Assembly (NCBI GenBank): GCA_032128395.1
Contig: JAQBGV010000096.1
Coordinates: 8,376 to 72,375 of the forward strand
DNA from: Planctomycetota bacterium
GTDB lineage: Bacteria; Planctomycetota; UBA8108; UBA1146
Reading direction: 5' to 3'
DNA length: 64,000 nucleotides
In this document: positions 3,569 through 52,612 of the stretch, one piece after another
Layout of the letters: the number at the start of each line of letters is the position of its first letter
Numbering within the stretch: position 1 is the first letter of the stretch
Position numbers and translations under genes: made by a program
Notes under the pieces: generated by a model
What the model saw: the letters and a program-made list of their open reading frames with translations, nothing else
What the model was told of the DNA's origin: nothing
Database searches by the model: none

Positions 3569-3898
3569 GTGGCCGGCGAAATCCTCGAGATCACCGATGC
3601 GAACTTCCAGAGCGAGATCATCGACAGCGGCGCACCCGCCGTCCTCGACTTCTACGCGACCTGGTGCGGCCCCTGCAAGACGATCGCGCCGATCGTCGAG
3701 GAGCTCGCTGCGTTGTACGCCTCTCAGGGTGTGAAGATCGGAAAGGTCGATATCGACGTCTCCGGTGATCTCGCCTCCCAATACGACATTCGTGGCGTCC
3801 CGACCCTGATGTTCTTCAAGGGCGGCGAGAAGGTCGACCAGATCGTGGGCGCTCAAACGAGGAACGTCATCGAGTCGAAAATCAAAGAGCTGCTCTAA
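3569..3898 (+). CDS. trxA: thioredoxin
   Basis: 109 aa, canonical WCGPCK active site, GTG start preceded by GGAAGGAG RBS. Confidence 0.92.
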   Translation: MAGEILEITDANFQSEIIDSGAPAVLDFYATWCGPCKTIAPIVEELAALYASQGVKIGKVDIDVSGDLASQYDIRGVPTLMFFKGGEKVDQIVGAQTRNVIESKIKELL

Positions 3899-4004: not shown

Positions 4005-4253
4005 TTATTCGGCGCGTTTCTCGAGCTCATCCAGTCGGCGCTCCAGGAACTCGATCTCTTCCCGGAGACCAGCATTCCGCCGCATCGACAGCACGATGAA
4101 GATCACCACCAAGCCGAAGACGATGCCGTAGGCGAGGGTCACCTTGCCTCGATAGTCCACCGGGGCTTCCGGCTCACCGGGGCCTTGCGCGATCGCGAGC
4201 GCCGGCGCGCACACGATGACCACCCCGAGGAGGAGCGGGAGGAATCGTCTCAT
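4005..4253 (-). CDS. small membrane protein, CcmD-like (heme exporter protein D candidate)
   Basis: 82 aa, N-terminal hydrophobic segment plus one TM (GIVFGLVVIFIVL); start codon overlaps ccmC stop (ATGA); position after ccmC as in ccmABCD operons. Assignment by position, not sequence identity. Confidence 0.45.
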   Translation of the reverse strand: MRRFLPLLLGVVIVCAPALAIAQGPGEPEAPVDYRGKVTLAYGIVFGLVVIFIVLSMRRNAGLREEIEFLERRLDELEKRAE

Positions 4254-4978
4254 GCCGAGTCTCCTTCCTCGATCCCCCGCACCCGCGCGAGGACCGTGTC
4301 GAGCCGCTCCTTCGAATCTTGGCGGGCGAGCCGCCAGCGGTAGAGGAGCAGGTAGAGGGTGAAGAACGCCAGAACCCCGAACCAACGGGTCTGAGAGATG
4401 CTCGGGTCGGAGCCGAGGTCGTCGAAGGTCTCGGGGTGCGAGCTCTTTCCGAACCACTCGACCGCGTAGTGGACCAGCGGGATGTTGATGTACGCAAGGA
4501 TGCCGAAGATCGCGGCAAATCGACGGCGCTTCAGCGAGTCCTCGACCTGATTCTGCAGAAGAACGTATCCCGCGTAGGTCAGCCACATGATGGCAGCGGA
4601 CATCAGACGCGCGTCACTCCAGTCCCACCAGGTGTTCCACGCAGCAGAGGCCCAGGTCGAGCCGGTCGCCACGGTCACACTGCAGGTGAGAAGTCCGACC
4701 TCCCCCGCGGCACGCGCGCGACGGTCCCAGGCGGGGCTCCCCGTCCGCAGCACCGCGATGCTCGCGACCAGAACTATTGTGAAGAAGACCAGACAGGAGA
4801 GCGCGGCGGGGAAGTGGTAGTAGAAGATCAGGTAGCTCTGCTCGATCTTGCGGATCGAGAACGGAACGTAGTTCGCGATCATGTAGTTGAGCGCCGAGAC
4901 CATCACCAGCGCTGCGGCCGCATGGATCAGAAAGCTCGGATGCACCCTTGGCGAACGCACTTCCGACACCGCGACCAC
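4250..4978 (-). CDS. ccmC: heme exporter protein CcmC
   Basis: Tryptophan-rich WWD motif region (WNTWWDWSD), multi-TM, 242 aa. Confidence 0.85.
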   Translation of the reverse strand: MVAVSEVRSPRVHPSFLIHAAAALVMVSALNYMIANYVPFSIRKIEQSYLIFYYHFPAALSCLVFFTIVLVASIAVLRTGSPAWDRRARAAGEVGLLTCSVTVATGSTWASAAWNTWWDWSDARLMSAAIMWLTYAGYVLLQNQVEDSLKRRRFAAIFGILAYINIPLVHYAVEWFGKSSHPETFDDLGSDPSISQTRWFGVLAFFTLYLLLYRWRLARQDSKERLDTVLARVRGIEEGDSA

Positions 4979-5662
4979 CTATCCGTCGAAATCCGCGACG
5001 ACCAACTGGAACAGGATCTGCCCGGCCGCGATGTAGACCAGGTCGAATGCGGCGATCATCGCGATCTCTCGGGAACCGATCTCGAATCCGCGGAGCGCCT
5101 GGGTCGTCAGGCTGACCACCGCCTTGAAGAAGGGGATCAGGAGCGGCAGGAGAAGGAGCCGCAACAGCACGTCACCCCCCCGGATCGATCGGGTCATCGC
5201 CGCGAGGGTGACCCCCACCGCCACGAACCCGAGTGTCCCTACCCACGCTGCGAGGAGCACGATCGCCACCGTGGCCAGATCGGTGCGAACGTTGTAGAGC
5301 ACCAGGAACGCGACGAGCACCACCGTTTCCATCGCCGCGACGAAGATCCAGGTCGAGGCGAGGCGCGCGTAGTAGATCGTGGTTCGCCCGACCGGCGAGA
5401 GGAGAAGACCCTCGAGGACGCGCTCCTCTCCTTCGCGGCCAAAACTTCGCTCGATCCCGATCGTTCCCGCGAGGAGGAACACCGTCCACAAGATCCCCGG
5501 CTGCGCCTTGACCGCCGTCTCGGTGCTCGGATCGATCGCGAACGAGAGCACGAACAGGGTGACCAGCGCGAAGAGCACCATGCTGACGACAGTCTCGCCG
5601 CGACGCAGCTCGCGCACGCACTCCCAGCGTACGAGCGCCCCGAACGCGCGCAGGGCGTTCAC
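4979..5662 (-). CDS. ccmB: heme exporter protein CcmB (ABC permease)
   Basis: C-terminal ~228 aa of ORF 4979..6256 is a 6-TM CcmB-like permease; GTG start (VNALRAFGALVRWE...) overlapping ccmA stop; upstream part of the ORF is GC-frame read-through. Confidence 0.8.
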   Translation of the reverse strand: MNALRAFGALVRWECVRELRRGETVVSMVLFALVTLFVLSFAIDPSTETAVKAQPGILWTVFLLAGTIGIERSFGREGEERVLEGLLLSPVGRTTIYYARLASTWIFVAAMETVVLVAFLVLYNVRTDLATVAIVLLAAWVGTLGFVAVGVTLAAMTRSIRGGDVLLRLLLLPLLIPFFKAVVSLTTQALRGFEIGSREIAMIAAFDLVYIAAGQILFQLVVADFDG

Positions 5663-6351
5663 GACGCCCCCTCCTCGCCGGCCGCGGACCAGGTACCGCG
5701 AGCGGTGCGGCGGGAAACCGTGCCGCGGTCGAGCCAGGTGACGCTGTGGCAGAGACGCTCCGCTCGGCGCAGCTCGTGAGTGACGAGGAGCACCGTCCTC
5801 CCCTCGCGAACCCTCTCGTCGACCATCGATTCGACGAGCGCACACCCCTCGGGGTCGAGCCCGGTAAAGGGTTCGTCGAGGATCAGCAGCTCCGGATCTG
5901 GGAGCAATGCACAGACGAGGCTCGCTCGCTGGGCCATTCCCCGCGAGAAGGTGCGGAGCGGATCGCGACGCCGCCAGCTCAGCCCGACGCGCTCGAGGAG
6001 GGCATCTCTGCGAATGCTCGGGATCCCGCCGCCGTGGAGGTCCGCGACGTACGCGAGGGCGTCGGAGAGGGAGAGGTTGCGGGGGACGAGCGGTTGGTCG
6101 AGCAGAACTCCGAGGCGCGCGCGCACCTGCGCCCCCTCGGCCGGCACCTGGAACCCGCACACCTCGAGCTCGCCCTCGCTCGGCTGGAAGAGTCCGCACA
6201 CCAGCTTCAGGAAGGTGGTCTTCCCCGAACCGTTCGGCCCGAGGATCCCGTGGCAAGTCCCGGCGGCGACCTCGAGATCGAGATCGCGGAGCGCCTTGCG
6301 CTCGCCGTAGCGCTTCCCGAGTCCCTTCGCCACGATGACAGGATCGATCAC
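5659..6351 (-). CDS. ccmA: cytochrome c biogenesis ABC transporter ATP-binding protein CcmA
   Basis: Walker A GPNGSGKTT, ABC signature FSRGMAQR, Walker B LLILDEP; GTG start inside ORF 5659..7062. Confidence 0.82.
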   Translation of the reverse strand: MIDPVIVAKGLGKRYGERKALRDLDLEVAAGTCHGILGPNGSGKTTFLKLVCGLFQPSEGELEVCGFQVPAEGAQVRARLGVLLDQPLVPRNLSLSDALAYVADLHGGGIPSIRRDALLERVGLSWRRRDPLRTFSRGMAQRASLVCALLPDPELLILDEPFTGLDPEGCALVESMVDERVREGRTVLLVTHELRRAERLCHSVTWLDRGTVSRRTARGTWSAAGEEGAS

Positions 6352-6404
6352 CGGAGCACCGACCGCCGGCGACGGTGCCGTAGCCGGGTCTGCGGGAGAA
6401 GAAG

Positions 6405-7784
6405 TCAACGCTTCGTCCCGTTCAGCTCGGATCGGACGATGCGGGCGATCTCCTTCACCTGCAGCATCAAGGTCTGGGGCGACGCATCTGAATTCTCGAT
6501 GATCTCGTCGAGACGCTCGAGAATGGTCGAGCGATTCGCCCCAAGACGGGTGAGTTCTCGTTCGAGGTCGTCCTCCGTCAGCTCTCCTCGCTCGCGCAGT
6601 CCATGCAATTGCGCGACGCGCGCCTCTCGGCCGCTCGTCGATGCACGTTGCCGCGCGATCGCGATCCCTCCCCAGATCGGCAACGCGAATGCCGCCAGGA
6701 TGATGAGCGTCATCACGATCGTCTGTGAGGAGATCCCCGGCGGACCGAACCGGACCGGGACCCTCACCTTTCCGTGGGCGGGGATCCGCGGGCTCGAGAA
6801 CATGTTCACGGTCTTCTGGACGTCCGGCATTTCGCGGGTCCCTCCCGAAACCAGTGGGGGGACATCCCAAGCCGAGGCCGTGTCGGCATCGTGCGTGAAC
6901 ACTCCCTGCTCGATGGAGAGCTGCAACACCTGGGTATCGACGATCGCCTCGAGGCCGAGGTCGAAGAGCTCCCCTCGGACGACCTCCTGGTGGTAGATCC
7001 CCATCAGGAGGCCGTTCTCGACCGGGAAGACCGGCTGGGTCAACGGCACGCCGTACCCCCAATGAGAGACCTGGCGCGCCTCGAGCTCGAGAGCGGCCTC
7101 GGTGCCGATCATCAATTGGAGGACTACTGCGCCCTCGGGGACCGGGAAGAGGAAGCCGACTCCCGGCTCGTCCGGTGGCCCGGTGAACACTTCGAAGCCG
7201 CCGTTCTGGTACTGGACGATCTGTCGTACCTGAACCATCGCACTCTCCCCCTCGGAATCTTGCCCCGGGGCGAGGGTGACGATGCGGATCACCGCTTGCT
7301 GAAGAGTCGAGTGGTCATCGGTCACGCGGTAGAGGGGGAGCTGCCCCCCGGCGGGGGCCATCTGCTGCTCCTTCGCGAGGTATCGACGACCATCGACCGC
7401 GGTTGCGCTCACCTGGTACGGCGAGCCGAGCCGCCGCAGGCCGAGATCGAGGATCACCCGTCCCTCGGCATCGCTGCGGCCGCGAGTGATCGCTTCTTCT
7501 GCGTCGGGGGTGAAGCTCCGGACTTCGACCTCGGCGCCCGAGAGCAGGTGATCGAGGGCTCGTGGCTCCGCGCCGGCGCCGTGCTGTGGGCTCGACTCGA
7601 ACATCGCGGTACGGTCGATCAGCTGCAGCTCGAGCCGCACCGGGATCGGCTCGGTCGGTAGCGTCTCGGAAACCCGAGGCATCGGGGGACCTGCGTGGGG
7701 CGAAGGGGCTTGCCCCACGAGGGTCCCCCCGGCCAGAAGACCCACTGCGAGAAAAACGGCGCACCCCACCGCAAACCGGATCAT
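6405..7784 (-). CDS. hypothetical exported protein with C-terminal TM anchor and cytoplasmic coiled-coil tail, embedded in ccm cluster
   Basis: N-terminal signal-like hydrophobic segment, large soluble domain, TM helix (IVMTLIILAAFALPIWGGIAI) then charged helical tail; 4-bp overlap with upstream small ORF. Confidence 0.5.
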   Translation of the reverse strand: MIRFAVGCAVFLAVGLLAGGTLVGQAPSPHAGPPMPRVSETLPTEPIPVRLELQLIDRTAMFESSPQHGAGAEPRALDHLLSGAEVEVRSFTPDAEEAITRGRSDAEGRVILDLGLRRLGSPYQVSATAVDGRRYLAKEQQMAPAGGQLPLYRVTDDHSTLQQAVIRIVTLAPGQDSEGESAMVQVRQIVQYQNGGFEVFTGPPDEPGVGFLFPVPEGAVVLQLMIGTEAALELEARQVSHWGYGVPLTQPVFPVENGLLMGIYHQEVVRGELFDLGLEAIVDTQVLQLSIEQGVFTHDADTASAWDVPPLVSGGTREMPDVQKTVNMFSSPRIPAHGKVRVPVRFGPPGISSQTIVMTLIILAAFALPIWGGIAIARQRASTSGREARVAQLHGLRERGELTEDDLERELTRLGANRSTILERLDEIIENSDASPQTLMLQVKEIARIVRSELNGTKR

Positions 7785-8077
7785 CCCCGTTCCCCTTCCG
7801 TGCCGACCCCGAGCTCCTTCAAGCGGCGGTAGACCGCGGCGGTCTCGGCGAGGTAATCGCTCCGGAGCTCCTCATACTCGCTCGCGCCGATCGTTCCCGC
7901 CTCGTGCTCGTGCTCGAGGTCCTTGAGCGCGCGGAGCAACTTTCCCCGCTCCGCGATGAGCTGTTCCTCGACCGTCGACTCCTCGCGCGGAGCCCACGAG
8001 CGCTTCACCCCGAAGACCGGGGAGAGAATCCACCCCAGGATGGCGAGAGCGACCACGATGAAGAGCACGAGCCACAT
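7781..8077 (-). CDS. small single-TM membrane protein (98 aa), embedded in ccm cluster
   Basis: MWLVLFIVVALAILGWIL TM followed by charged helical region; ATGA overlap with downstream gene. Confidence 0.45.
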   Translation of the reverse strand: MWLVLFIVVALAILGWILSPVFGVKRSWAPREESTVEEQLIAERGKLLRALKDLEHEHEAGTIGASEYEELRSDYLAETAAVYRRLKELGVGTEGERG

Positions 8078-8103: not shown

Positions 8104-8697
8104 CTACTCGATGGAATCGAGATCACTCTCGATCCGAGCGATCTCCTCGGGGGCGAGGTCGGTCTGGAGGCGACGCCGTTCGCTGCGTGCTTCCGCCCCG
8201 GCCTTCTGCCAACCGAGTATGACGTACCCTGCGAACAGTCCACCGACGATGAGCGCGGCGACCGGGAGGATGTACAACCACTTGCCGGTGCCCGCCCAAC
8301 CGGGGTTCGATCGCACCTGCGACCCGTACTTCTGCTCCATGAAGGTGAGGATCGCCTCGTCGCTGCTCCCCGCCTGCACCATCTGCAGGATCTCCTGCTT
8401 CTGCGGGTCGGCGCAGCCGTCGAGGCAACTGGCGAGGGTCCGCGTCCAATTCTCATCGGGACACGCACACATCACCTGCTTCGAGATGCGCTTCACCGAC
8501 GTGTGCACCTCAGCGCTGCTCGGGACGAGAAGAGGCTCGGCGCGACCGCGCTCGCCGTGCCCGGTCGAATCGTCTCCTCGAGAAGTCCCCGTCGGCACAC
8601 CGGTCGAGTCCTGGGCCGAGAGGTCCGAGGGGAGGGCCACCGACAGGACGACCGCGAGTCCGGCGAGCATCGCTGTGCGCAAGAGCTCAGTCCGCAA
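8104..8697 (-). CDS. ccmH: cytochrome c-type biogenesis protein CcmH/CycL family (atypical Cys motif)
   Basis: Region EILQMVQAGSSDEAILTFMEQKYGSQVRSNP aligns gap-free with E. coli CcmH VYSMVAEGKSEVEIIGWMTERYGDFVRYNP; C-terminal TM present; redox Cys arranged C-A-C...C-LDG-C rather than LRCxxC. Confidence 0.7.
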   Translation of the reverse strand: MRTELLRTAMLAGLAVVLSVALPSDLSAQDSTGVPTGTSRGDDSTGHGERGRAEPLLVPSSAEVHTSVKRISKQVMCACPDENWTRTLASCLDGCADPQKQEILQMVQAGSSDEAILTFMEQKYGSQVRSNPGWAGTGKWLYILPVAALIVGGLFAGYVILGWQKAGAEARSERRRLQTDLAPEEIARIESDLDSIE

Positions 8698-10762
8698 GAC
8701 CGACTCGTTTCCGTCCGAGGGGGAGCGCGGCGAAGATCCCCCCGAGGATCATCATGATCCAACCCGCCCAGACGAGCATGATCAGTGGATTTCGGAAGAT
8801 GACCAGGTTGTAGCTCCCGTCCTCCCCCGAAGATTGGAAGAAGACGTAGAGGTCCTCCAGCATTCCGCGGTGGATCTCCACCTCGGTGACCATGGTGTTC
8901 TTCTTCGGGTAGTGGCGCTTCTCGGGGAACATTCGGAACGCGCCGCCGAACTCAGGTCGAACCCCGATCTCGAGGGTCTGCAGCCCGAACACCTTGCCGG
9001 ATTCAGCCTGGTCGAGGGTCTGTGCATTCTCCAGGCTGATCTCGTAGCTCCCCACCTGTACCTGGTCCCCCGTACGCATTTTGAATTCCCGCTCCACCCG
9101 GTACATCGACGAGCAGACGATCCCGGTGGTGATCACCGCGAGGCCGACATGCACGAAGTAGCCACCGTACCGCCGGTTGTTGCGCACGGTGATGGTGACG
9201 AGTGTCTCGAGCAATCCCTGGCCAGTGCGTCGACTCCGGTTCTGCACGGTGCGGAGAACCTCGTAGCCGAGGGAGATGGCGATCAGGGTCGCGGAGTAGA
9301 GAACGACGAAGGTCGGGTAGATCCGTTTCGCCCAGCTGAGATCCCCCGTCTCCCCCGCCCGGATCAGTTCGGCACCCCACTGGATCGTCGCCGCGATCGG
9401 GACCGACACGAGGGCCGGGAGCAACAGGTTCCGCAGGAGCACCCGGGGGCTGGTCCGTATCCACCCGAGAGCGGGCCCCACCGCCGAGATCAGGAGCATG
9501 AGCACGAAGAACGGGACCGTCACCTGGTTGTAGGTCGGGGGTCCGACCGAAATCGCCTGGCCGAAGAACTCGTGGGAGATCTTCGGCCAGAGGGTCAGGA
9601 TCAGGATCGAGGAAGCGATCGCGAGCAGAACGAAGTTGTTGATCACGAACAGCGCTTCGCGCGACCAGAGCGTCTCGATCCGGTGCGGCGAGCGCATCGA
9701 GGGCTGCCGTAGCGTGATCAGGAACAGACACACCGCGATGCAGGTCAGCAGGAACCCGAGGAACCAGTCCCCCACCGGTCCGCTGCCGAACGCGTGCACC
9801 GAGTTGACGATGCCACTGCGGGTCAGGTACGTCCCGAAAATGCTCAGGACGAACACCAGCGTCGCGAGGAATGCGTTCCACGAGCGCATCATCCCGCGGC
9901 GTTCCTGCACCATGATCGAGTGCAGGAGGGCGGTCGAGGCGAACCACGGGAGGAAGCTCGCGTTCTCGACCGGGTCCCACGCCCAATAGCCTCCCCACCC
10001 GAGGACGACGTAGGCCCAGAGCCCTCCGAGGATGACGCCGGTCGTGTTGAAGAGCCAACCGAGCATCGTCCAGCGGCGGATCTTGGTGATCCAGTAGTTC
10101 CCCTGCTCGCCGATGATCAACGCCGCGATCGCGAAGCAGAACGGGACGGTGTAGACCACCCAGCCGAAGTAGAGGCACGGCGGGTGGATCAACATCCAAT
10201 AGTTCACGAGGAGCGGGTTGAGGCCGGAGCCGTCCAGGATGGGGGCGCCGTTCGGGAAGTTCTGAGCGAGGAACGCGGCCGAGTGGAGCTCGAATGGGTT
10301 CGTCACGAAGGCGACGACGACCAGGAAGAAGAGTTGGATCGATCCGAAGACGAGATACACCCACGGCTCGAGGCGGCGCCCCTCGCGGTCCCCTTCATCT
10401 CGCCGAAAACCGTACGCGACGATCCCCCCCACGACCCCGATCAGCGCCGCCCAGAAGAGGATCGAGCCGTCGAGTCCTCCCCAGAGCCCCGCGATCTTGT
10501 AGGAGAGAGGGAGTCCGCGCTCGGAGTAGTCGTAGATGTAAGAGCGGTCGTAGGCCCCGTTTACGAAGCCCGCGACCAGGCCGATCGCCGCCCCGACGGT
10601 CGCCCCGCCGGTGGCGACCAGTGAACGTCGCGCGGCGAGAACGAGACGACGATCCTGGATCCAGTCGCCGAGCACGACCAGCAAGATCGTCAGGAGCCCG
10701 AGGCCAGCGCCGAGGATGACGAGGGCGCGGGAGAACTCCAGGTAGCCGAACTCATGGGGCAT
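8687..10762 (-). CDS. ccmF: cytochrome c-type biogenesis heme lyase subunit CcmF
   Basis: 691 aa polytopic membrane protein with WGGYWAWDPVENASFLPW tryptophan-rich (WWD) motif and conserved His; overlaps ccmH start. Confidence 0.9.
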   Translation of the reverse strand: MPHEFGYLEFSRALVILGAGLGLLTILLVVLGDWIQDRRLVLAARRSLVATGGATVGAAIGLVAGFVNGAYDRSYIYDYSERGLPLSYKIAGLWGGLDGSILFWAALIGVVGGIVAYGFRRDEGDREGRRLEPWVYLVFGSIQLFFLVVVAFVTNPFELHSAAFLAQNFPNGAPILDGSGLNPLLVNYWMLIHPPCLYFGWVVYTVPFCFAIAALIIGEQGNYWITKIRRWTMLGWLFNTTGVILGGLWAYVVLGWGGYWAWDPVENASFLPWFASTALLHSIMVQERRGMMRSWNAFLATLVFVLSIFGTYLTRSGIVNSVHAFGSGPVGDWFLGFLLTCIAVCLFLITLRQPSMRSPHRIETLWSREALFVINNFVLLAIASSILILTLWPKISHEFFGQAISVGPPTYNQVTVPFFVLMLLISAVGPALGWIRTSPRVLLRNLLLPALVSVPIAATIQWGAELIRAGETGDLSWAKRIYPTFVVLYSATLIAISLGYEVLRTVQNRSRRTGQGLLETLVTITVRNNRRYGGYFVHVGLAVITTGIVCSSMYRVEREFKMRTGDQVQVGSYEISLENAQTLDQAESGKVFGLQTLEIGVRPEFGGAFRMFPEKRHYPKKNTMVTEVEIHRGMLEDLYVFFQSSGEDGSYNLVIFRNPLIMLVWAGWIMMILGGIFAALPLGRKRVGLAD

Positions 10763-10789: not shown

Positions 10790-11242
10790 CTACTCTGGAT
10801 CGGGGGGAGAGACTGTAGGCGGTGGGGCTGCGGATTCGGGCGCGCTGCCGTAGACGTCGGCAGAGCCCATCACTCCGCTCTCCTCGTACTTCGAGGGGCA
10901 CTTCGTGAAGATCTTGGTTCCCTCGAAAAGTTCGGTCTTGCCGACGAAGACTCCGATCACCGCCACATCCGTGTCGACCTTGAAAATGTCGGGGCGGTGG
11001 TCATCCACCGAAGCGATGATACGCACCGAAGGGTCTTCGATGTCGCGGATCGTGAACCGCATCGGACGGACGTCGCTGTCGATCGCGTGGATCACGCCTT
11101 GAAGGCGGACGATCTTGCCCTCGTAGTCACCCATCCGGAGCGACTGGACACCGACTTCGGGGATCGCGCCTTGGAGGATCCCCATCGTCACGAGACCGAC
11201 CAGCCCGATCAGAATGAGCAGGCCGGGAATTGCGATCTTCAA
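10790..11242 (-). CDS. ccmE: heme chaperone CcmE, variant with C-x3-Y heme-binding motif
   Basis: 150 aa, N-terminal TM anchor, OB-fold-like core; FTKCPSKYEE aligns with E. coli LAKHDENYTP (His130 replaced by Cys). Confidence 0.8.
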   Translation of the reverse strand: MKIAIPGLLILIGLVGLVTMGILQGAIPEVGVQSLRMGDYEGKIVRLQGVIHAIDSDVRPMRFTIRDIEDPSVRIIASVDDHRPDIFKVDTDVAVIGVFVGKTELFEGTKIFTKCPSKYEESGVMGSADVYGSAPESAAPPPTVSPPDPE

Positions 11243-11286: not shown

Positions 11287-11340
11287 CCGACTTTCCACTA
11301 TCGGCCCGACTTCCATTATCGGCCCGACTTCCATTATCGG
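11287..11340. repeat. three tandem 18-bp direct repeats, each CCGA-N10-TCGG, in divergent ccmE/HAD promoter region
   Basis: ccgactttccactatcgg / cccgacttccattatcgg / cccgacttccattatcgg (last two identical). Confidence 0.8.
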
Positions 11341-11405
11341 ATCGTCGGCTTCTCGATCACAGTCCGATCGCGCGGATTCGGTCCCCCGTAGGTCGACAGT
11401 ATCCT

Positions 11406-12197
11406 ATGATGCTGACCGATCGGAGGGCAATCCTGCGATTTCCGGGCCTGAGCGCCCTGCTGCGCCCGGAATGCATCCAGACGCTTCGCCTCGCGGATTG
11501 GAGGGACATGGACGAACCGTTCCTCGGCCCGCTCCGGATCGTCGTCTTCGACCTCGACGGCACCCTGATCGACTCCCTTCCCGACATCGCTCACGCCGTG
11601 AACGAGGTGCGTCGTGCCCACGCTGCCAGCCCAACCCCCCTCGAGCAGATCCGCGCCGCGATCGGAGACGGGGCCCGCGTCCTCGCCGGACGGGTCTTCG
11701 GCGATTTGAGAGAGGTGGGCGAAGAGGCGATCCTCGGGGAGTTCCTCGCCGAGTACGAACGATGCAGTGTCGAGAACCTCGAGCCCTGGCGAACGGGCTC
11801 GCAGGAGCTCCTCGATCTCCTGACCGGACACGGTCTCGAACTCGCCATCCTCTCGAACAAGCCGCTAGCTCTGACCGAGCGCATCCTCGAGAACACGGAG
11901 GCGCGCTCCCAATTCGTTCTGGTGCGGGGGCCGGAGAATTCTCCGGCCGCGAAGCCGGACCCGCTCGCACTCCTCGACATCATCGCGTCGCGTGGATTCG
12001 CTCCGACCGAGGCGTGCTTCGTCGGCGATTCGATCGTCGACTTCGCGACGGGTCGTGCCGCGGGGGTCTTCACGATCGGCGTCCGGGGCGGATACCGCGC
12101 GGACGGAGAGCCGGGCCCCGACGTCTGGTGCGACGATCCCGCCGCGGTCTTCGATTGCCTCCGAGTTTCCTCCATCCGAACTGCGGAGGCCGAATGA
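11406..12197 (+). CDS. HAD-family hydrolase (phosphoglycolate phosphatase-like)
   Basis: VVFDLDGTLIDS motif I, SNK motif, C-terminal GDSxxD; ATG start inside longer ORF; stop overlaps nfo start. Confidence 0.8.
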   Translation: MMLTDRRAILRFPGLSALLRPECIQTLRLADWRDMDEPFLGPLRIVVFDLDGTLIDSLPDIAHAVNEVRRAHAASPTPLEQIRAAIGDGARVLAGRVFGDLREVGEEAILGEFLAEYERCSVENLEPWRTGSQELLDLLTGHGLELAILSNKPLALTERILENTEARSQFVLVRGPENSPAAKPDPLALLDIIASRGFAPTEACFVGDSIVDFATGRAAGVFTIGVRGGYRADGEPGPDVWCDDPAAVFDCLRVSSIRTAEAE

Positions 12198-13078
12198 GCG
12201 CGCTCCCGACCACCGCAGAGAGCGAAGCGAAGGAGCTGCGACTCTGCCTCGGGTCCCATCTGTCGGTGGCGGGGGGCCCTTGGAAAGCGGTCGACGAAGC
12301 GATCGAATTGAAGTTGCGCAGCCTCCAGATCTTCACCAAGAATGCGAGTCGATGGAGCCAGCGCCCGATCGCGGAGGGCGAAGCCGAGCGCTTCGGAGCA
12401 AGACGCGCGGCGTGGGGGGATGGCCCGGTCGTCAGCCACACCTCCTACCTGATCAATCTCGGTTCTCCGAAGGAAGAGTTGTTCCAGAAGTCCTCCGCCG
12501 CGCTCGCGGACGAAATGGAACGCGCGGCGATCCTCGGTCTCGACGGAGTCGTCCAGCATCCCGGTGCGCACGTCGGCTCCGGGGTCGAGGCGGCGATCGA
12601 GAGCATCGCCCGCGGCGCGCAGGCCGTGCTCGATCGCGCTCCCGAGGGCCCGCGGCTCCTCCTCGAGAACACGGCGGGAGCGGGATCGACGATCGGCCGC
12701 TCCTTCGAGGAACTCGCCGCTCTCCTCGCGGGGATCGATCGCCCCGACCGCACCGGGATCTGTCTCGACACCTGCCATCTCTTCGCGTCGGGATACGATC
12801 TTCGGACCGAGGAAGGATACGCTGCGACGATCGCCGAACTCGAACGCCACATCGATGTCTCCCGGGTGGCCTGCTGGCACCTCAACGATTCGCGGGGGGA
12901 CCTGGGGAGCAACCTCGACCGGCACGAGCACATCGGCACCGGAGCGATCGGCCTCGAAGGGTTCCGACACCTGCTCGCCGATCCGCGCTTCCACGGGGTC
13001 CCGAAGATCCTCGAGACACCGAAGGATGGTGACGCGGACCAGGTGAACCTCCGTGTCCTCCGCGAGTTGGTTCCGTGA
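12194..13078 (+). CDS. nfo: deoxyribonuclease IV (endonuclease IV)
   Basis: AP-endonuclease family 2 residues (HxxY, LENTAGAG, DTCHLFASGYD, WHLNDS); ~295 aa; real gene is the 3' end of artefactual ORF 10754..13078. Confidence 0.9.
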   Translation: MSALPTTAESEAKELRLCLGSHLSVAGGPWKAVDEAIELKLRSLQIFTKNASRWSQRPIAEGEAERFGARRAAWGDGPVVSHTSYLINLGSPKEELFQKSSAALADEMERAAILGLDGVVQHPGAHVGSGVEAAIESIARGAQAVLDRAPEGPRLLLENTAGAGSTIGRSFEELAALLAGIDRPDRTGICLDTCHLFASGYDLRTEEGYAATIAELERHIDVSRVACWHLNDSRGDLGSNLDRHEHIGTGAIGLEGFRHLLADPRFHGVPKILETPKDGDADQVNLRVLRELVP

Positions 13079-13103
13079 GCGGCGCGGCGGGAGCATCGAA
13101 GCG

Positions 13104-14621
13104 ATGACCAACCGCATCGTGCTCCCGGTCGACCGCGCCCGAGCGGTGGTACTCGTCGAGGCGATCGAACGCACCGATCCCGAGGGGGCGTGGCTCCCTC
13201 TCCCCGATCGTGAGGATGCCACGCGGCGCGCCCGGGCCCTCCTCGGCGACTCGTCGACCGCGGATGAGGTCGCGGCGGCGATCGCATCCCGCGCGGATGA
13301 ACTCATCGCCACACTCGGGCGAGACGAACCCGCGCTGCCACGGATCGCGCGGGGGATCCCGACGGGGCTCCTGGTCGGCGCCGCCCTCCTCATCCCACTG
13401 ATCTACGGACTCGGCCGGAGCATCCTCGGCCCCGGGAACACGATCGACATCTTCCGGAACCCGCTGATCTTGTTGGTACTGTGGAACTCGGCGGTCACGG
13501 TCGTCTCGCTGCTCGTTCTCCTCTTTCGCGCTCGGGGACCGAAGCGTCGGAGGGACCGGACCGATGGCGGCGACCGAGTGCCTCGTCCCCCTCTCCTGTC
13601 GACTCGACTCGGCGAGTGGCTCCTCGCCCTTGGAGTCGGAGCCCGTGCGCTCCGCACCGCAGACCGGACCGGCCATCGGCGGCGCGCTCTCACCGAATTC
13701 TCTCTCCGCTGGCGCTCGGTCGCTGCGATCCCCCTCGCCACCACCGCGCGAATCCTCCTGAACATCGGCGCGCTCTTGCTTCTGTCGACGGCGATCCTCG
13801 AGGCGTACCTGCGGGGACTCTTCACCGAATACTCCGCCTCCTGGCACACGACGTTTCTCGAGCCGGCACAGGCGGAGCGGTTGGCGAAGATCATCTACGG
13901 TCTCCCCGCCGCCCTCCTCGGCCGTGCCGTCGTCTTGCCGGGCGCAGGGGTGGGTGAACCCGCCGCCGGTTGGATCCACTTGATGGCGCTCGCGGCGCTG
14001 ATCTACGCGATCCTGCCGCGTCTCTTCCTGCTCACCGGGACGATCGTCGCTCGCCATAGGGCGCGGCGCGTCACGGTATCGATCTCCCCCGCGCTCGCCC
14101 GACGCTTGCGGGCCCGCGCGATCACCGGGTTTGCGAGCGTCGTGGTCTCACCGTACAGCTGCCGGATCCCCGAGGGGGGCGCCGATCGTCTGCGGGCGCT
14201 ACTCGTCGAGTTGCTCGGAGAACGCGCCGTCATCGAGTTCGCCTCCCCCGTCGAATACGGGGCCGAGGCGCTCGACGAGGGACGGCAGGGGGGGAGCGAC
14301 CCCGAACATCTCTGCCGCGTCGTCCTCTTCGCGCTCGCCCAGCCGCCGGAGACCGAGGTCCACGGCGCTCTCGCTCACGCCCTCGCGCGGGAAGACGCGC
14401 CGGTGATCGCCGTAGTCGATGCTTCGGGGCTCGGGCGCCGATTCGGGTCCGACGATGAGGGTCGCGCGCGACTCGCCGAGCGCCGTCGCACATGGGACCG
14501 GGTCCTCGCGGATGCGGGGATCGAAGCGTGCCACCTCGACCTGGCCCGAGACCTCGATGACCGGAGCTTCGCGGCGCTCGGTCGCGCCCTCGCCGCGACC
14601 CAGGATGGAGTGGTCCGGTGA
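13104..14621 (+). CDS. DUF2868-like integral membrane protein
   Basis: ~505 aa, several TM segments, Arg-rich loops; genomic pairing and ATGA overlap with following GTPase/DUF3482-like gene is the recurrent DUF2868/DUF3482 arrangement (family call from memory). Confidence 0.6.
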   Translation: MTNRIVLPVDRARAVVLVEAIERTDPEGAWLPLPDREDATRRARALLGDSSTADEVAAAIASRADELIATLGRDEPALPRIARGIPTGLLVGAALLIPLIYGLGRSILGPGNTIDIFRNPLILLVLWNSAVTVVSLLVLLFRARGPKRRRDRTDGGDRVPRPPLLSTRLGEWLLALGVGARALRTADRTGHRRRALTEFSLRWRSVAAIPLATTARILLNIGALLLLSTAILEAYLRGLFTEYSASWHTTFLEPAQAERLAKIIYGLPAALLGRAVVLPGAGVGEPAAGWIHLMALAALIYAILPRLFLLTGTIVARHRARRVTVSISPALARRLRARAITGFASVVVSPYSCRIPEGGADRLRALLVELLGERAVIEFASPVEYGAEALDEGRQGGSDPEHLCRVVLFALAQPPETEVHGALAHALAREDAPVIAVVDASGLGRRFGSDDEGRARLAERRRTWDRVLADAGIEACHLDLARDLDDRSFAALGRALAATQDGVVR

Positions 14622-16081
14622 ACGATCCGCGCACGATCACCTGGAGCATCGTCTCGCACACGAACGTCGGGAAGACGACCCTGGCGCGCACTCTGCTCCG
14701 GCGAGAGGTCGGCGAGGTCGCGGACCAGGCCCACGTCACCGACCGGGCCGAGCGGCACACGCTGCTCGAGGCGGGAGACCACCGATTGGTCCTCTGGGAC
14801 ACCCCCGGATTCGGGGACAGCGCACGCCTCATCCGACGGCTCCGCGGGCAGGGGCAGCCACTGGGATGGCTACTCGCCCAGGTGTGGGACCGGATCGCCG
14901 ACCGGCCGCTGTACTGCAGCCAGAAGGCGATCGCGAACATCCGCGACGAGGCCGATCTGGTCCTCTACCTGGTCAGTGCGGCGGAGAGCCCCGAAGAAGC
15001 AGGGTACGTTCCTCACGAGATGGAGCTGCTCGCATGGACCGAGGTCCCGGTGGTGTTGCTCCTCAACCAGACCGGGGAGAGCTCGCTCGATGAGCTCGCG
15101 GAACTCGCGGATCGATGGCGAAAGGCGAGCGAGGCATGGCCGGCGGTGCGCGGGGTGCTCTCACTCGATGCCCACCGGCGCTCGTGGGTCGAGGAAGGGG
15201 TCCTCCTCGAGCAGTCCGCGTCGTGGCTCCCCGCGGAGAAGCGCCCCGTCCTCGAAGCGCTCTCCACCGCCTGGCGAACGCGGGCCCGCGCGCTCATCGA
15301 CGAGAGCGTCTCGGCCCTCGCCGAGTACCTCGCGGACCTGCTCCACCACCGGGAGTCGATCGAGGGAAGTTCCTTCTCTCCCGGGGCGAAGAAGGCGGCG
15401 CGGGAGCGGATCCGGGGGCGGGCCGAGGAACGCAGCCGCGCCCTCCTCGGCCGGTGGATCGCGGTCCACGGTCTGACCGGAGAGCTCGCGGAGCGGATCG
15501 AGGCGGACTGGGAGCATTTCGTCGACTCGGGGGCGGTCTGGCTCGACTCCAAGCGCCTGGGGGTCGGCGGGGCACTCGGGGGGGCGGCGACAGGTGCACT
15601 GGTCGACGCGAAGGCGCTCGGGATGACCCTCGGGGCGGGCACGTTGGTCGGTGGGATCCTGGGTGGGATCGCGGGGTGGGGACTGGGCGGTTGGATCGCG
15701 GATCGATCGGCTCGCGGGCGGCACATCAGGATCGGACCGGCGGCGATCGAGTCTCTCCTCGCGAGGTTGCTCGTCGGGCTGCTGGCGATCTCCCATCACG
15801 GGAGGGGCCGGGGCGAAGTGCGTGCGGAGGAGCTGGCGCGTCGCTGGTCGGATCAGGTCGCAGCGGTGCTGTCGAAATCGCGCAGCACTTTCGAACCGCT
15901 CTGGGAGCGCGGACGTGATGGGACGGCGGGAGCGCGAGAGAAGACGGCATCGCAACTCGAAGCGCCGATCCGTAGCGTGGTGATCGGTCTCTTGTCGTCG
16001 GACTCGGATCGGGTCGAGGAAACGCTGCGTCGGGCGGTGTCTGGCGGCGGCGCCGAGCCCGATTTGGGCGTACGACGATGA
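14618..16081 (+). CDS. GTPase/DUF3482-like membrane-associated GTPase
   Basis: G1 VSHTNVGKTTL, G3 DTPG, NQTG-like G4 (LLLNQTGE), followed by Gly-rich hydrophobic C-terminal domain; overlaps both neighbours by 4 bp. Confidence 0.7.
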   Translation: MNDPRTITWSIVSHTNVGKTTLARTLLRREVGEVADQAHVTDRAERHTLLEAGDHRLVLWDTPGFGDSARLIRRLRGQGQPLGWLLAQVWDRIADRPLYCSQKAIANIRDEADLVLYLVSAAESPEEAGYVPHEMELLAWTEVPVVLLLNQTGESSLDELAELADRWRKASEAWPAVRGVLSLDAHRRSWVEEGVLLEQSASWLPAEKRPVLEALSTAWRTRARALIDESVSALAEYLADLLHHRESIEGSSFSPGAKKAARERIRGRAEERSRALLGRWIAVHGLTGELAERIEADWEHFVDSGAVWLDSKRLGVGGALGGAATGALVDAKALGMTLGAGTLVGGILGGIAGWGLGGWIADRSARGRHIRIGPAAIESLLARLLVGLLAISHHGRGRGEVRAEELARRWSDQVAAVLSKSRSTFEPLWERGRDGTAGAREKTASQLEAPIRSVVIGLLSSDSDRVEETLRRAVSGGGAEPDLGVRR

Positions 16082-19325: not shown

Positions 19326-20789
<1,464 letters not shown>

Positions 20790-20815
20790 GTTGCACCCTT
20801 TCGGCCACACGCCGC

Positions 20816-29775: not shown

Positions 29776-32664
29776 TCAAGGTGAGGGCAGCACCTCGAAC
29801 CGGAGCTTGCGCGGCAGCGAGATCGTCGCGAGGCGCTCGGTGTCTTGATAGAGCCCGGTGACGAGTTGGACGGTCAGCACGTACTCTCCCGGCTCGAGGC
29901 CCTCCGCGACGGTGAAAGTCAGCCGCCCGTCGAACGTCCCCCGGTAGGCGCGGACGGGACCGCCGAGGTAGCGCTCCTCGGCTCCGTCGGAGGAATCCAG
30001 CGAGCCGCTCGGGCGGAGAACGGTCACCGACTTCCCCGCTTCCTCGATCGAGAGACCCGTAAGGCGGATCTGACTGTGGAACGCGGGACGATCGGTCAGC
30101 CCGGTCTCGAGGAACTCGATGAACTTCCGCTTCGAATTGGTGAACGCTTCACGCGCCACTTCGAGGTGACTCTCACTGTCGAGCACGATGTAGGTCGGGT
30201 TCGCGTTGTAGCCGGTCAGTTCCCGTTGGAGCTCGGTGTAGTCCGCCTCGAGCGGATCGTCGGTGTAGATCTCGAACAATTCGAACTGCCGCAAGAGCGC
30301 TTCGGCTTCCGGGTCTCTGAGGATCCCGCCGGGACCCTCCATCTGTTTGCAGTTCTGTCAGACGTGACCGGTGAAGTTGATGAAAATCGGTCTTCGCTCT
30401 CCCCCCGCCGCGATCCGCTCGCGGATCGTCTCCAGCTCCGCCGCGAAGGGGACCGGGTTCTCGTAGCTGAGCACTCGCCACTCGAGGCTGGACTCGTCCG
30501 CGTAGAACGACTTCACGAGGAGCTGCGATTCGAGGTTCTTGTTCAGGTGCCCCCCGGCCACCGCCCAGAGGCAGAATCCGGCCGAGACCACGCAGAGGAG
30601 GACCAGGACCACCCGGGGAGCGCCGATCCGCTGCAGCGGTGAGTCGTGGGGGAAGCGGATCTTGCCGAGGAGGTAGAGCCCCATCGCGAGCAGGAGCACC
30701 CCCCAGATCGCGAAGATCACCTCTCGCGAGATCACGGAGTCGAGGCGCCACCGCCCGATCGTCGCACTGAAGAACTTCCAGGCCGCGATGAGCTCGACGA
30801 AACCGAGGACCCCCTTCACGGTGCTGAGCCACCCTCCCGAGCGCGGCAGCCCCGCGAGCGCTTTCGGGAAGAGCGCGAGGCAGAAGAACGGCAGGGCGAA
30901 GGTCGCCGAGAAGGCGAGCATTCCGATCGCGGCGTACCCAGGTCCGGAACCAGCGGCGAGAGCGAGGAGGGCTGCTGCGATCGGACCGACGCAAGTGAAC
31001 GTCGCCACGCTGAAGACGAACCCCATCACGAGGACACTCGCCACGCCGTTCCCGCCCCCGCCCCCTGCGGCACGATTGCGCAACCAACTCGGGAGCTGGA
31101 TGTCGTAGTAGCCGAAGAGGCTGAACGCGAAGTAGACGAAGAGAGCGCCGATCCCGAGGTTCACCCAGGCGTTCGTCGCCATGAAGTTCGCGCCCTGCTC
31201 GCCGAGGATCGCGCTCAGGACGAGTCCGAGGGTTGTGAAACTCGTCATCACGCCGACGCAGAAGAGGAGCGCGAGCCCGATCACGCGCGAACGCTTCTGG
31301 TGCGCCTGCTTGGTGAAGACACTGATCGTGATCGGGATCATCGGGTAGACGCACGGGGTGAGGAGCGCGATCAGGGCGCCGCCGACGCTCAGAGCGACGA
31401 TCCCCCAGAATCCCGCCTCTTTCGACCAGTCCTTCTGGATCGCCGGGATCCGTCTCCCCGTTTCGAGGACTTCGCCCCGAAACGCCACCGTGAGGGTCTC
31501 TCCCGAACGCACCTGTGTCCGATCGAGGCTCGCGGTGAAGCGCACCGGACCCGTCGGCTCGTCGGAGCCGGTCGACCCGCCGTTCTGGGGCACACCCCCC
31601 GCCACCTCCATCCCGACGAGGACTGGAACCACGATCTCGGAGACCGCGGGCAGCTCGCACCCACCCGCGTCGCACGCCTGCGTGCGCACTTTCACGCCGA
31701 CCCGGTAGCTCCCGACCGGAACGGTATCCGGGGCGCGGAATCGCAATCGGAAGGTCGCGGTGCCGACATGCTCGGGCACGTTCTTGCCGTCGACGACGAC
31801 GATCTTCGGCGCGCTCTCGAGCACTCCTTCGATCGCTTCGAACGGGCCCGCGTCCGCGACATCCACCTGGACCGGGAGACCGTTGTCGCCGCGATAGTCG
31901 AGGCCGTAGAGGTGGAAACCGCGCTCGATCTTCGCTGTGATCTCGACGGTGAACTCCGCGCCCGGTTCCACCGCGTCGGCTCCACGTGCGGTCAGAGCCA
32001 CCGTCGGGGAAGCGAGTTTCTCGACGACGAGAGAAGTTCCCACCGCACCGGGGCCCGCCTCAGCTCCGCCCCCCGCGGCCGGTCGTTCTTCCCCCACCCA
32101 CACCGGCAGCGTGAAGGAGAGGATTTCGGTCGGAAGACACTGGTTCGCATCGCAGACCATGTAGGTGAACTCGACGGTGGCCGCGTAGCGACCGGGAGCG
32201 AGATCGGCGGGTGCCTCGAGCGGGAGACGAAAGGGGACCTTCCCCTCGTGCTCCAGCATCACCCCGCCCATCACATCGTCGTAGTGGGACCTCGGCTTCG
32301 GCTCGATCGCAACCCCCGCAGCGCGGAAGGGTCCGAGTTGGGTCGCGACGTACGCCGTCGGCGTGCCGAGGTCTTCGAGGAGCTGCATCCCGTAGATGTG
32401 CCAACCACGATCGATCACGGCCTCGACGACGAGTTCGAAGCGGCTCCCGGGAGCAACCCCATCGATCCCCTTCGCGTGCAGCAACACCGGCGCGTCATCG
32501 GCCGCCCGGGCCTCCTGATCGAAGGGGGGAGGGGAAGAGTCGTCGGCGGGGGCGGGGGAGAGTCCCGCGAGGAGCCCCCCGAGGACCAAGAGGGTCGAGA
32601 AGAGCCTCGAGGTCTGGGGTGCGTGGATAACGGTGGGGGTCACGAAGCCTCCGTCGGGGATCAT
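29776..32664 (-). CDS. dsbD: thiol:disulfide interchange protein DsbD (2x alpha-like, beta TM, gamma Trx-like), predicted selenoprotein with in-frame UGA at 30358-30360
   Basis: ORFs 30358..32664 and 29776..30342 are in the same frame, separated only by TGA. Beta domain has conserved LTPCVYPM and FTCVGP cysteines; two N-terminal domains each carry a C-x4-C pair. Read-through gives PIFINFTGHV-U-QNCKQME..., aligning with E. coli DsbD-gamma [18 protein letters not shown]... Confidence 0.7.
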
Positions 32665-32870
32665 GGGCGAGAGCGGGCCATTCCATCGAACCGCGGCGGG
32701 ATCGAGTTCCCGGGACGACGAGATCCTCCCCGGCCGCTCCTCCCAAGTCGAGCGATGGTAGCCCGGCCGCTCTTCGCGACAACTGTCTCGGGGAGACGGG
32801 GGGTACCCCCTCGGGTATCCTCCTCGTCCGAACGGCGGGAAGGAGCAGCATGGGCGAGGGTCTGCGGGGG

Positions 32871-33704
32871 ATGCGAGCGAGCTTCCAAATCGGGGGGCGC
32901 CATCGGCCGGCCCCGCTCTGGATCGTCGGTCCCGACGTCATCGAGGACGAGGGGTTCACCCTCGAGGTCGCTCACGCCCTTGCGGAGGTCGCGACGCGGC
33001 GAGGCCTCTCCCTGCTCTTCAAGGCCTCGTACGAGAAAGCAAACCGCTCCCGGGGGGACTCCTTCCGAGGCCCAGGGATCGACCGCGGTCTCGAAATTCT
33101 CGCTCGGGTCCGCGGGGAGACCGGGCTCCCCGTGACGAGCGATGTGCACACCGCGGAAGAGGCGCGACGATCGGCGGAGGTCCTCGACGTGGTCCAGATC
33201 CCCGCGTTCCTCAGCCGCCAGAATGCGCTCCTCGAAGCCGCCGCGGAAGGTGGGCGCACCGTCAATCTGAAGAAGGGGCAGTTCCTCGCTCCGAGCGACG
33301 TGCCGCAGCGGGTCGAAGTGCTCCGTCGGGCGGGCGCCGGCGATGTCTGGATCACCGAACGAGGGGTGAGTTTCGGCTACTTGCGGCTCGTCAATGATCT
33401 CCGAGTTCTCCCTGCGATCCGCGCGACCGGAGCCGCCGCGATCTTCGATGCGACCCACAGCGTGCAGAGTCCGGGGGGAGGAGTCGACGGTTCGAGCGGC
33501 GGGGAACGCTCGATGATTCCGATTCTCGCCCGCGCCGCCGTCGCGGCCGGATTCGATGGGTTCTTCTTCGAGGTGCACCCCGACCCCGAGCGCGCACTCT
33601 GCGACGGTCCGAACGCACTCCCGCTCGACCGCCTCGAGGCTCTCTTCGATCAGCTCGAGCCGCTCGCGTGCGTCGTCCGCGAGATCCCCGATCTCGAGCT
33701 GTGA
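32871..33704 (+). CDS. kdsA: 3-deoxy-8-phosphooctulonate synthase
   Basis: LLFKASYEKANRS, QIPAFL, FDATHSVQ, FEVHPDPE motifs match KDO8P synthase; start approximate. Confidence 0.85.
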   Translation: MRASFQIGGRHRPAPLWIVGPDVIEDEGFTLEVAHALAEVATRRGLSLLFKASYEKANRSRGDSFRGPGIDRGLEILARVRGETGLPVTSDVHTAEEARRSAEVLDVVQIPAFLSRQNALLEAAAEGGRTVNLKKGQFLAPSDVPQRVEVLRRAGAGDVWITERGVSFGYLRLVNDLRVLPAIRATGAAAIFDATHSVQSPGGGVDGSSGGERSMIPILARAAVAAGFDGFFFEVHPDPERALCDGPNALPLDRLEALFDQLEPLACVVREIPDLEL

Positions 33705-52605: not shown

Positions 52606-52612
52606 CGAATCG

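Follow-up and report, generated by a model that had tools for sequence, protein, structure and literature searches.

A predicted System I*-type cytochrome c maturation operon combining a Cys-type CcmE, a non-canonical CcmH-family protein and two conserved accessory genes in a Planctomycetota-like bacterium

The 64-kb stretch of DNA analysed here (referred to as the window, with all positions counted within it) carries what we consider, with good confidence, to be a complete System I*-type operon for cytochrome c maturation, probably a functional one, as judged from the sequence of an uncultured Planctomycetota-like bacterium. A CcmE heme chaperone of the Cys type is encoded in this operon together with a CcmH-family protein that lacks the CXXC motif and with two accessory proteins of 98 and 459 amino acids. 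As earlier papers have described the occurrence of a non-canonical CcmH together with a Cys-type CcmE, the operon represents a further example of this combination, from new phyla. It is mildly new that this sub-type extends to Planctomycetota-like bacteria and other phyla, that its lineage is coherent and that it includes two conserved accessory genes.

All nine genes lie on the minus strand in the order ccmE, ccmF, CcmH-family gene, 98-aa gene, 459-aa gene, ccmA, ccmB, ccmC and ccmD and are thus read from high to low coordinates with ccmE first. Start and stop codons overlap by 4 bp at four of the junctions and the remaining gaps are shorter than 30 bp, a spacing in keeping with co-transcription as one unit and with translational coupling. 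Pfam and NCBIfam searches confirmed the gene order given in an earlier note on this DNA, that is, ccmE and ccmF in front, followed by a CcmH-family gene plus two extra genes ahead of ccmABCD. Both middle genes (98 and 459 aa) are without a Pfam match. The same layout is found in relatives whose CcmE proteins are 43–72% identical to that of the window.

The System I* core genes ccmA, ccmB, ccmC, ccmE and ccmF are all present, each with a Pfam match above threshold. The product of ccmF (8687..10762, minus strand), the predicted heme lyase/synthetase subunit, comprises 691 aa and matches Pfam CcmF_C and Cytochrom_C_asm with 197 and 112 bits, respectively. It possesses the WWD motif (WGGYWAWDPVEN) as well as the four conserved His residues of CcmF proteins (two periplasmic, two acting as transmembrane b-heme ligands), with H193, H281, H323 and H538 aligning with H173, H261, H303 and H491 of the E. 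coli protein. The ABC-transporter ATPase gene ccmA (5659..6408, minus strand) is recognized by Pfam ABC_tran (89 bits), and the NCBIfam CcmA models score it with 98–110 bits, which is under their cut-offs. Its start is uncertain: translation may begin at TTG at 6408, 4 bp into the preceding gene, or at GTG at 6351. The permease gene ccmB (4979..5662, minus strand; 227 aa; Pfam CcmB PF03379, 80.7 bits, cut-off 24.9) starts with a GTG that overlaps the ccmA stop codon by 4 bp. CcmC (4250..4978, minus strand; 242 aa) matches Pfam Cytochrom_C_asm with 70 bits and NCBIfam TIGR01191 with 95 bits, the latter under the cut-off of 186, and carries a WWD-type motif (WNTWWDWSDARL). Its first conserved His, H55, aligns with H60 of E. 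coli CcmC, and one His sits one residue off the column of E. coli H184. Finally, ccmD (4005..4253, minus strand), whose ATG overlaps the ccmC stop codon by 4 bp, encodes a small single-TM protein of 82 aa that scores 26.7 bits with NCBIfam TIGR03141 (cut-off 25.95) and 22.4 bits with Pfam CcmD, slightly under the cut-off of 25.6. The NCBIfam equivalog cut-offs are missed by ccmA, ccmB, ccmC and ccmE, as expected for a divergent lineage, and the names of these genes rest on Pfam matches and context.

The first gene of the operon, ccmE (10790..11242, minus strand), encodes a 150-aa protein with an N-terminal membrane anchor, the predicted heme chaperone of the Cys type (System I*). Its start codon is a TTG, with a GGAGG sequence located 7–8 nt upstream, and the protein scores 34.5 bits with Pfam CcmE (PF03100; cut-off 24.6). 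The codons of the heme-binding motif FTKC115PSKY119EE occupy positions 10880–10909. In a MAFFT alignment of the window protein with E. coli K-12 CcmE (from NC_000913) and 15 relatives, C115 lines up with His130 of the E. coli protein and Y119 with its Tyr134 (compare LAKHDENY with FTKCPSKY). This alignment bears out the claim of the earlier note that Cys replaces the heme-binding His of canonical CcmE. Indeed, C115 is the sole Cys of the protein, His residues occur at positions 52 and 82 only, and the C-terminal third is devoid of His. A second, canonical ccmE, named by the same note as evidence that would speak against this view, is absent from the 64-kb window, which likewise contains no second ccmF or ccmC and no CcsA-like gene. 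Among solved structures, the Cys-type CcmE from Desulfovibrio vulgaris (2KCT) scores best, aligned with TKCP over TKCP, a match that is weak when taken alone (E 0.06). The stretch T113-K-C-P-S-K-Y-E120 proved invariant in 12/12 CcmE homologues sharing 43 to 69% identity with the window protein, and the exact peptide TKCPSKYE was found in more than 600 stretches of a species-representative genome collection, 337 of which were confirmed as relatives of CcmE. Thus, the retention of this peptide in homologues and in many genomes marks a conserved class of CcmE rather than a chance substitution. A CcmE identical to the window protein is encoded on contig JAQBCW010000121.1 of assembly GCA_032124895.1. 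CPSKY is present in most variant CcmEs according to Stevens et al. 2011 (PMC3601427). The Cys-type CcmE of D. desulfuricans carries covalently bound heme and requires the Cys (PMC3601427), and in Methanosarcina (M. acetivorans), where CcmE likewise binds heme covalently, the Cys of the CXXXY motif is required for heme attachment (Gupta et al. 2022, PMC9084895). Covalent heme on the Cys and the maturation of holocytochrome c are on record for these two homologues only.

The CcmH-family gene (8104..8697, minus strand) encodes 197 aa when read from TTG at 8697, and 188 aa in the public gene call, which starts from ATG at 8670. The protein matches Pfam PF03918 with 59.5 bits (cut-off 25) and shows the layout of this family, i.e. 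a signal sequence, a periplasmic helical domain and a C-terminal TM helix (segment WLYILPVAALIVGGLFAGYVILGW). Its Cys residues are confined to C77-x-C79 and C91-x3-C95 (CACPDENWTRTLASCLDGCA, encoded at 8410–8469); a CXXC is absent from the whole protein, and so is the redox motif LRCXXC of CcmH. A profile of 13 such proteins was run against solved structures and matched the CcmH structures 2HL7 (E 1.3e-11) and 2KW0 (E 2.7e-10). The profile alignment shows the first canonical Cys retained and E82 in the column of the second, whereas C91, which is invariant in 13/13 proteins of the profile, is placed on the conserved Ser of 'IADS'. Since the protein scores above the Pfam threshold and yet has no CXXC, it is a CcmH of derived type, as opposed to one preserved in canonical form. 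The statement of the earlier note that the cluster keeps CcmH thus holds with respect to the Pfam match, but was overstated in view of the missing CXXC.

The 98-aa gene (7781..8077, minus strand) always follows the CcmH-family gene. Its product, a membrane protein anchored by a single TM helix at the N-terminus and ending in a charged helical tail, matches the NCBIfam model of the CcmI N-terminus (TIGR03142) with 21 bits, under the cut-off of 29.3, across profile positions 3–68 of 118. Sub-threshold matches to the same model (17.8–21.6 bits) were also obtained for 6/10 relatives from several phyla, spanning profile positions 2–70 to 4–86. There is neither a second TM helix nor a TPR domain in the 98-aa protein, and its 459-aa neighbour has no TPR match either. 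It is plausible that the 98-aa protein is a CcmI that has been cut down to the first TM helix and the cytoplasmic loop, as suggested by these sub-threshold matches.

The start of the gene for the 459-aa accessory protein (6405..7784, minus strand) overlaps the 98-aa gene by 4 bp. The protein has no Pfam or NCBIfam match, and a search of 1.84 billion representative proteins yielded only 29 relatives, including tandem duplications of 750–860 aa. Homologues at 52, 33, 29 and 24% identity all occupy the same slot, X, of E-F-H-98aa-X-A-B-C-D operons, which in each of the four cases encode a TKCPSKY-type CcmE and a CcmH with the pattern CxC...E...C-x3-C. Indeed, the family was found in this slot in every context examined. 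Thus, the protein is a dedicated and conserved component of the operon. In a locus from Planctomycetia (L013) the slot is occupied by a 484-aa protein (HMM E 5.6e-9), in Poribacteria by proteins of 403 aa (L075) and 576 aa (L016), and in a Thermoanaerobacteraceae MAG by a protein of 335 aa. The 403-aa protein matches CarboxypepD_reg above threshold and the 576-aa protein below it. Comparison of the 459-aa protein with the Poribacteria/Thermoanaerobacteraceae slot set by hhalign yielded a probability of 76% and an E of 2.4e-5. The slot proteins of other phyla are thus remote homologues of the 459-aa protein or share its architecture.

An AlphaFold2 model of the 459-aa protein (mean pLDDT 71.5, i.e. 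moderate confidence) predicts a signal/anchor, two periplasmic beta-sandwich domains (residues ~47–155 and ~160–346), a TM segment (~353–384) and a cytoplasmic helical tail. When this model was compared with the PDB by Foldseek, OST1/ribophorin I of the eukaryotic oligosaccharyltransferase came first (8pn9_E, 6s7t_E, 6ezn_A; E 3e-6 to 1.5e-5). Like the 459-aa protein, OST1/ribophorin I displays non-cytoplasmic beta-sandwiches, after which the chain crosses the membrane once as a TM helix and ends in a cytoplasmic tail. However, TM-scores reach only 0.23–0.25, identity is ~10% and there is no functional link, and the resemblance of the modelled fold would therefore be one of architectural analogy only. 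We also considered a relationship of the tail to the 98-aa protein and rejected it, as the 98-aa HMM does not match the 459-aa protein of the window. The same HMM does match the corresponding 335-aa protein of locus L017. Similarity of the tail to SHOCT is insignificant (E 0.098).

Word-indexed homologue searches were shallow, with 19 proteins retrieved when CcmE was the query, 5 with CcmH and 8 with the 459-aa protein. For the survey, one genome per species was scanned for TKCPSKYE and the best 80 of the 337 confirmed loci were kept; ORFs were called in all 80 and searched with iterated HMMs seeded with the window proteins. The loci come from Desulfovibrionales, Planctomycetota, Thermoleophilia, Coriobacteriia, Firmicutes, Bacteroidota, Ignavibacteriota, Poribacteria, Abditibacteriaceae and others, and follow two gene orders, E-F-(H-98aa)-A-B-C-(D) and A-B-C-E-F, the latter being that of Bacteroidota and Ignavibacteriota. 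Within these best 80 of 337 loci, a CcmH-family gene lies directly downstream of ccmF in 11 of the 58 that could be assessed. These comprise all loci of the Planctomycetota type (5/5), of Poribacteria (2/2) and of Abditibacteriaceae (1/1), as well as those of Bacillus sp. JJ1609, Cytobacillus solani and one Thermoanaerobacteraceae MAG. No CcmH-family gene was detected within 10 kb in any of the 13 assessable Desulfovibrionales loci. The CcmH genes checked outside the window (10/10) score above the Pfam CcmH threshold. The possibility that canonical CcmH had been missed by the window-seeded HMM was dismissed, as phmmer with the N-terminal domain of E. coli CcmH retrieved the same loci and none in addition.

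LRCXXC in canonical register is present in none of the CcmH-family proteins of the survey. The remaining Cys residues differ between groups: C-x-C-P-D-C is kept in Abditibacteriaceae, C-x-C-x-x-E is the pattern of the Planctomycetota clade, and the Bacillus proteins have only the Cys equivalent to C91 left. When CcmF sequences were placed in a neighbour-joining tree (67 sequences, 614 columns, with the E. coli protein as the sole His-type sequence), all CcmH-bearing loci fell into one clade with a bootstrap value of 80/100. This clade, which also includes two Actinomycetota loci with the 98-aa gene only, is one among several Cys-type clades.

Absence of CcmH was reportedly used as a criterion for System I* in the title of a 2006 paper. 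The window operon does carry a gene with a Pfam CcmH match, directly after ccmF. However, the criterion was dropped in a 2011 review by the System I* authors, who regard the absence of CcmH as 'not a characteristic feature' (PMC3601427). According to the same review, CcmH is present in about one third of the bacteria whose CcmE is of the Cys type (Stevens et al. 2011, PMC3601427). In archaea, Geoglobus and Ferroglobus encode CcmH proteins that carry LX[S,N]C[E,D,H]C and lack LRCXXC alongside a CXXXY CcmE (Manzella et al. 2015, PMC4600277), and CcmH homologues have been reported for Ferroglobus by Kletzin et al. 2015 and for ANME-2d by Chadwick et al. 2022. With the pairing thus published (Stevens et al. 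2011; Manzella et al. 2015; Chadwick et al. 2022), the suggestion of the earlier note that the arrangement might be undescribed is not supported as stated. For Planctomycetota, we found no paper dealing with ccmE, ccmF or ccmH in the literature collection searched.

With the System I* of Desulfovibrio (ccmEFABCD with CcmI; Allen et al. 2006 and Goddard et al. 2010, as reviewed by Stevens et al. 2011, PMC3601427) the operon shares the C-P-S-K-Y motif of CcmE, the position of ccmE-ccmF ahead of ccmABC(D), the presence of CcmD and the lack of CcmG in the cluster. In contrast to the Desulfovibrio system, and to the Desulfovibrionales loci of the survey, which read E-F-A-B-C, the variant CcmH and the 98-aa and 459-aa proteins are inserted between ccmF and ccmA, and the CcmF of the window belongs to a different clade. 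The CcmH proteins of Geoglobus and Ferroglobus resemble the one studied here in having CxC, in lacking LRCXXC and in co-occurring with a CXXXY CcmE, a likeness drawn from their published description. Whereas these archaea have two such genes, one on either side of a duplicate ccmF and remote from ccmE, the CcmH of the window is a single copy within the main operon, has the additional C91-x3-C95 and is accompanied by two more accessory genes. With canonical System I (E. coli ccmABCDEFGH; CcmFHI of Rhodobacter), the operon has in common the CcmA, B, C, D, E, F and H families, the four His residues and WWD motif of CcmF, and the signal-domain-TM layout of CcmH. It differs from canonical System I by the Cys in place of His130, by the E-F-first order, by the lack of ccmG in the cluster, by a CcmH without CXXC, by a CcmI-like protein without TPR and by an extra beta-sandwich membrane protein.

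By homology with the tested Desulfovibrio and Methanosarcina systems, the following sequence of events can be proposed. CcmC together with CcmD would pass heme to membrane-anchored CcmE, where it would be bound covalently at Cys115 with Tyr119 serving as iron ligand, and holo-CcmE would in turn be freed by the CcmAB ATPase. To judge from gene position, from topology and from weak similarity, the variant CcmH may form, together with the 98-aa and 459-aa proteins, a module associated with CcmF that acts in ligation and substrate handling. Within this module, the 459-aa beta-sandwich protein could take over the part that the periplasmic TPR chaperone domain plays in CcmI, and the variant CcmH could serve mainly as a structural or apocytochrome-docking subunit or, alternatively, perform thiol chemistry through its CxC pair. 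A likely substrate of the maturation operon is a PSCyt-domain protein encoded at 20816–25876, which has two CXXCH motifs and would be one of the cytochromes matured.

Reducing power would be provided from elsewhere in the window. A CcmG/DsbE-type periplasmic gene is found neither in the operon nor among the window ORFs scanned, and the same ORFs include no ResB. The sole thioredoxin gene found (3569–3898), oriented convergently to the operon, matches general thioredoxin family models. A DsbD homologue (29776..32937, minus strand; Pfam DsbD_TM 92 bits, DsbD_N 39.8 bits), encoded 19 kb from the operon, is the likely source of periplasmic reducing power, and we infer its tie to the operon. Its reading frame is broken by an in-frame TGA at 30358–30360, which corresponds to the first Cys of the CXXC in the C-terminal thioredoxin domain (HV-TGA-QNCK) and is conserved in a second locus (L001). 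A SECIS element downstream of this TGA was considered and discarded: the 9-bp hairpin present there folds no better than shuffled sequences (z = -0.13). A tRNA-Sec is absent from the window, which contains no tRNA at all.

Among the alternatives, the one that fares best was raised by the earlier note and regards the operon as an evolutionary intermediate between canonical System I and System I*, in which CcmE is already of the Cys type and CcmH has not yet been lost. Such a scenario would account for the occurrence of a Cys-type CcmE and the E-F-first order alongside CcmH-family, CcmI-like and CcmD genes, which are found nearby in few System I* clusters. However, CcmH is itself derived, having lost LRCXXC and carrying Glu for the second Cys, and the loci with CcmH make up one of several Cys-type CcmF clades with no resolved basal position in a tree whose sole His-type outgroup is E. 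coli. Moreover, the same pairing exists in archaea, and Gupta et al. 2022 (PMC9084895) argue in favour of repeated horizontal transfer of Ccm genes rather than a simple stepwise series. With the pairing published and CcmH derived rather than retained in canonical form, the proposal is not supported as stated, and we consider it unlikely. Even less probable, to the point of being improbable, is that CcmF, the CcmH-like protein and the 98-aa and 459-aa proteins would constitute a heme lyase specialised on an unusual substrate or heme-binding motif, by analogy with NrfEFG, instead of the general synthetase. Pointing in this direction, the top NCBIfam models are of the NrfE type for CcmF (TIGR00353, 370 bits; TIGR03145, 361 bits) and NrfF for the CcmH-like protein (TIGR03147, 30.6 bits), and the CxC-type CcmH genes of Archaeoglobales flank a duplicate CcmF (PMC4600277). 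Yet, these scores are far under the NrfE and NrfF cut-offs of 927 and 159 bits, there is no adjacent nrfA-like gene, the set shares one operon with the only ccmE, ccmABCD and ccmF of the window, and the arrangement with a single ccmF is identical in all related loci. Finally, that the Cys is incidental and CcmE a decayed, non-heme-binding protein, with maturation carried out by another system elsewhere in the genome, is hardly credible: the NCBIfam CcmE equivalog model does score it with only 15.9 bits (cut-off 126), but the ORF is intact, preceded by a Shine-Dalgarno sequence and first in a coupled operon, TKCPSKYE is invariant across homologues of 43–72% identity and across many phyla, and experiments in Desulfovibrio and Methanosarcina have shown this motif to be required (PMC3601427, PMC9084895).

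We favour the reading of the operon as a probably functional System I*-type maturation operon. Beyond this, we tentatively propose, while regarding it as somewhat short of an even chance, that the operon belongs to a distinct Cys-type CcmE lineage present in Planctomycetota, Poribacteria, Abditibacteriaceae and some Firmicutes, in which the partner module of CcmF has been rebuilt from a CcmH with degenerate or lost CXXC and with a Cys invariably at the canonical Ser position (C91 in the window), a CcmI of which only the first TM helix and loop are left, and a dedicated, membrane-anchored beta-sandwich protein replacing the TPR apocytochrome chaperone.

The pairing of Cys-type CcmE with CcmH does not in itself change the field, and its value is descriptive. 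The sub-type nevertheless amounts to one coherent CcmF lineage that extends over at least four phyla and includes the cultured genera Bacillus and Cytobacillus, and the operon points to two conserved partners, one of them resembling a truncated CcmI and the other being a beta-sandwich membrane protein from a rare family. If the proposal of a rebuilt three-part module is true, this module would represent a new solution to the ligation step of System I and a natural experiment on the role of CcmH once its thiol-redox motif is gone. This role is debated, with CcmH being viewed either as a thiol reductant or as a stereospecific docking subunit. A CcmH naturally devoid of CXXC may thus offer a modest handle on the debate, in an operon that could in principle be tested heterologously.

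The DsbD homologue of the window (29776-32937, minus strand), which lies 19 kb from the ccm operon, contains an in-frame TGA at 30358-30360. This codon splits the reading frame exactly where the C-terminal thioredoxin CXXC motif would have its first Cys (FINFTGHV-TGA-QNCKQME), and the same frame stays open for a further 193 codons past it. The TGA and its surrounding context are conserved near position 1005 of L001, a related locus from another genome whose CcmE is 72% identical to that of the window, and the public gene calls of L001 are split there too. The DsbD homologue is a candidate selenocysteine (UxxC) protein. A hairpin downstream of the TGA was without statistical support, and no tRNA-Sec was found within the 64-kb window.

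L001 also shares a conserved block upstream of ccmE, GGATTGCCCTCCGA ... TAGGATACTGT, which is located at about 11395-11440 (minus strand) in the window and at about 9845-9895 in L001. This block resembles a -35/-10 promoter pair (TTGCCC, 18 nt, TAGGAT). In the divergent intergenic region of the window, an 18-bp tandem repeat with the unit CCGATAATGGAAGTCGGG (2.9 copies, 94% matches; 11287-11340) precedes the ccmE start by 45-100 nt. The corresponding upstream region of L001 lacks this repeat. A gene pair comprising a weak DUF2868 match followed by a GTPase (MMR_HSR1) with DUF3482 (13053-16081, plus strand, in the window) is a conserved neighbour of the ccm operon, shared with the related loci L001-L004.

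Within the operon, the slot of the 459-aa membrane-anchored protein is unchanged in loci where its homologue has an internal tandem duplication of the periplasmic region, giving a total of 747-857 aa (P0031, P0033, P0034, P0036, P0037, P0043 and P0050; e.g. L088 6302-8656 and L091 8001-10544). In a locus from Candidatus Poribacteria (L075), ccmF is followed by a tandem pair of CcmH-family genes (12375-13606) with the cysteine-rich motifs LCACGGCPP..DDCIC and LCYCGCPP..DECIC. Two cultured Bacillaceae, Bacillus sp. JJ1609 (L030, 9926-15666) and Cytobacillus solani FJAT-18043 (L065, 9905-15914), possess a System I-type ccm cluster composed of a Cys-type ccmE, ccmF, a CcmH-family gene with one Cys only, a 98-aa-like gene, a small membrane gene and ccmABC. 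These clusters stand out because the cytochrome c maturation route normally described for bacilli is System II (ResBC).

Elsewhere in the window, a SecD-like reading frame (51475-52623, minus strand) and a SecD/SecF C-terminal reading frame (49850-51730, minus strand) overlap by ~250 bp in different frames (together 49850-52623), which could reflect a frameshift or merely the effect of stop-to-stop reading extents. A DUF1501 protein and an adjoining PSCyt1/PSCyt2 WD40 protein of 1686 aa with two CXXCH motifs are encoded at 19326-25876 (minus strand), a gene pair typical of Planctomycetota. The PSCyt1/PSCyt2 WD40 protein is likely a substrate of the Ccm operon of the window.
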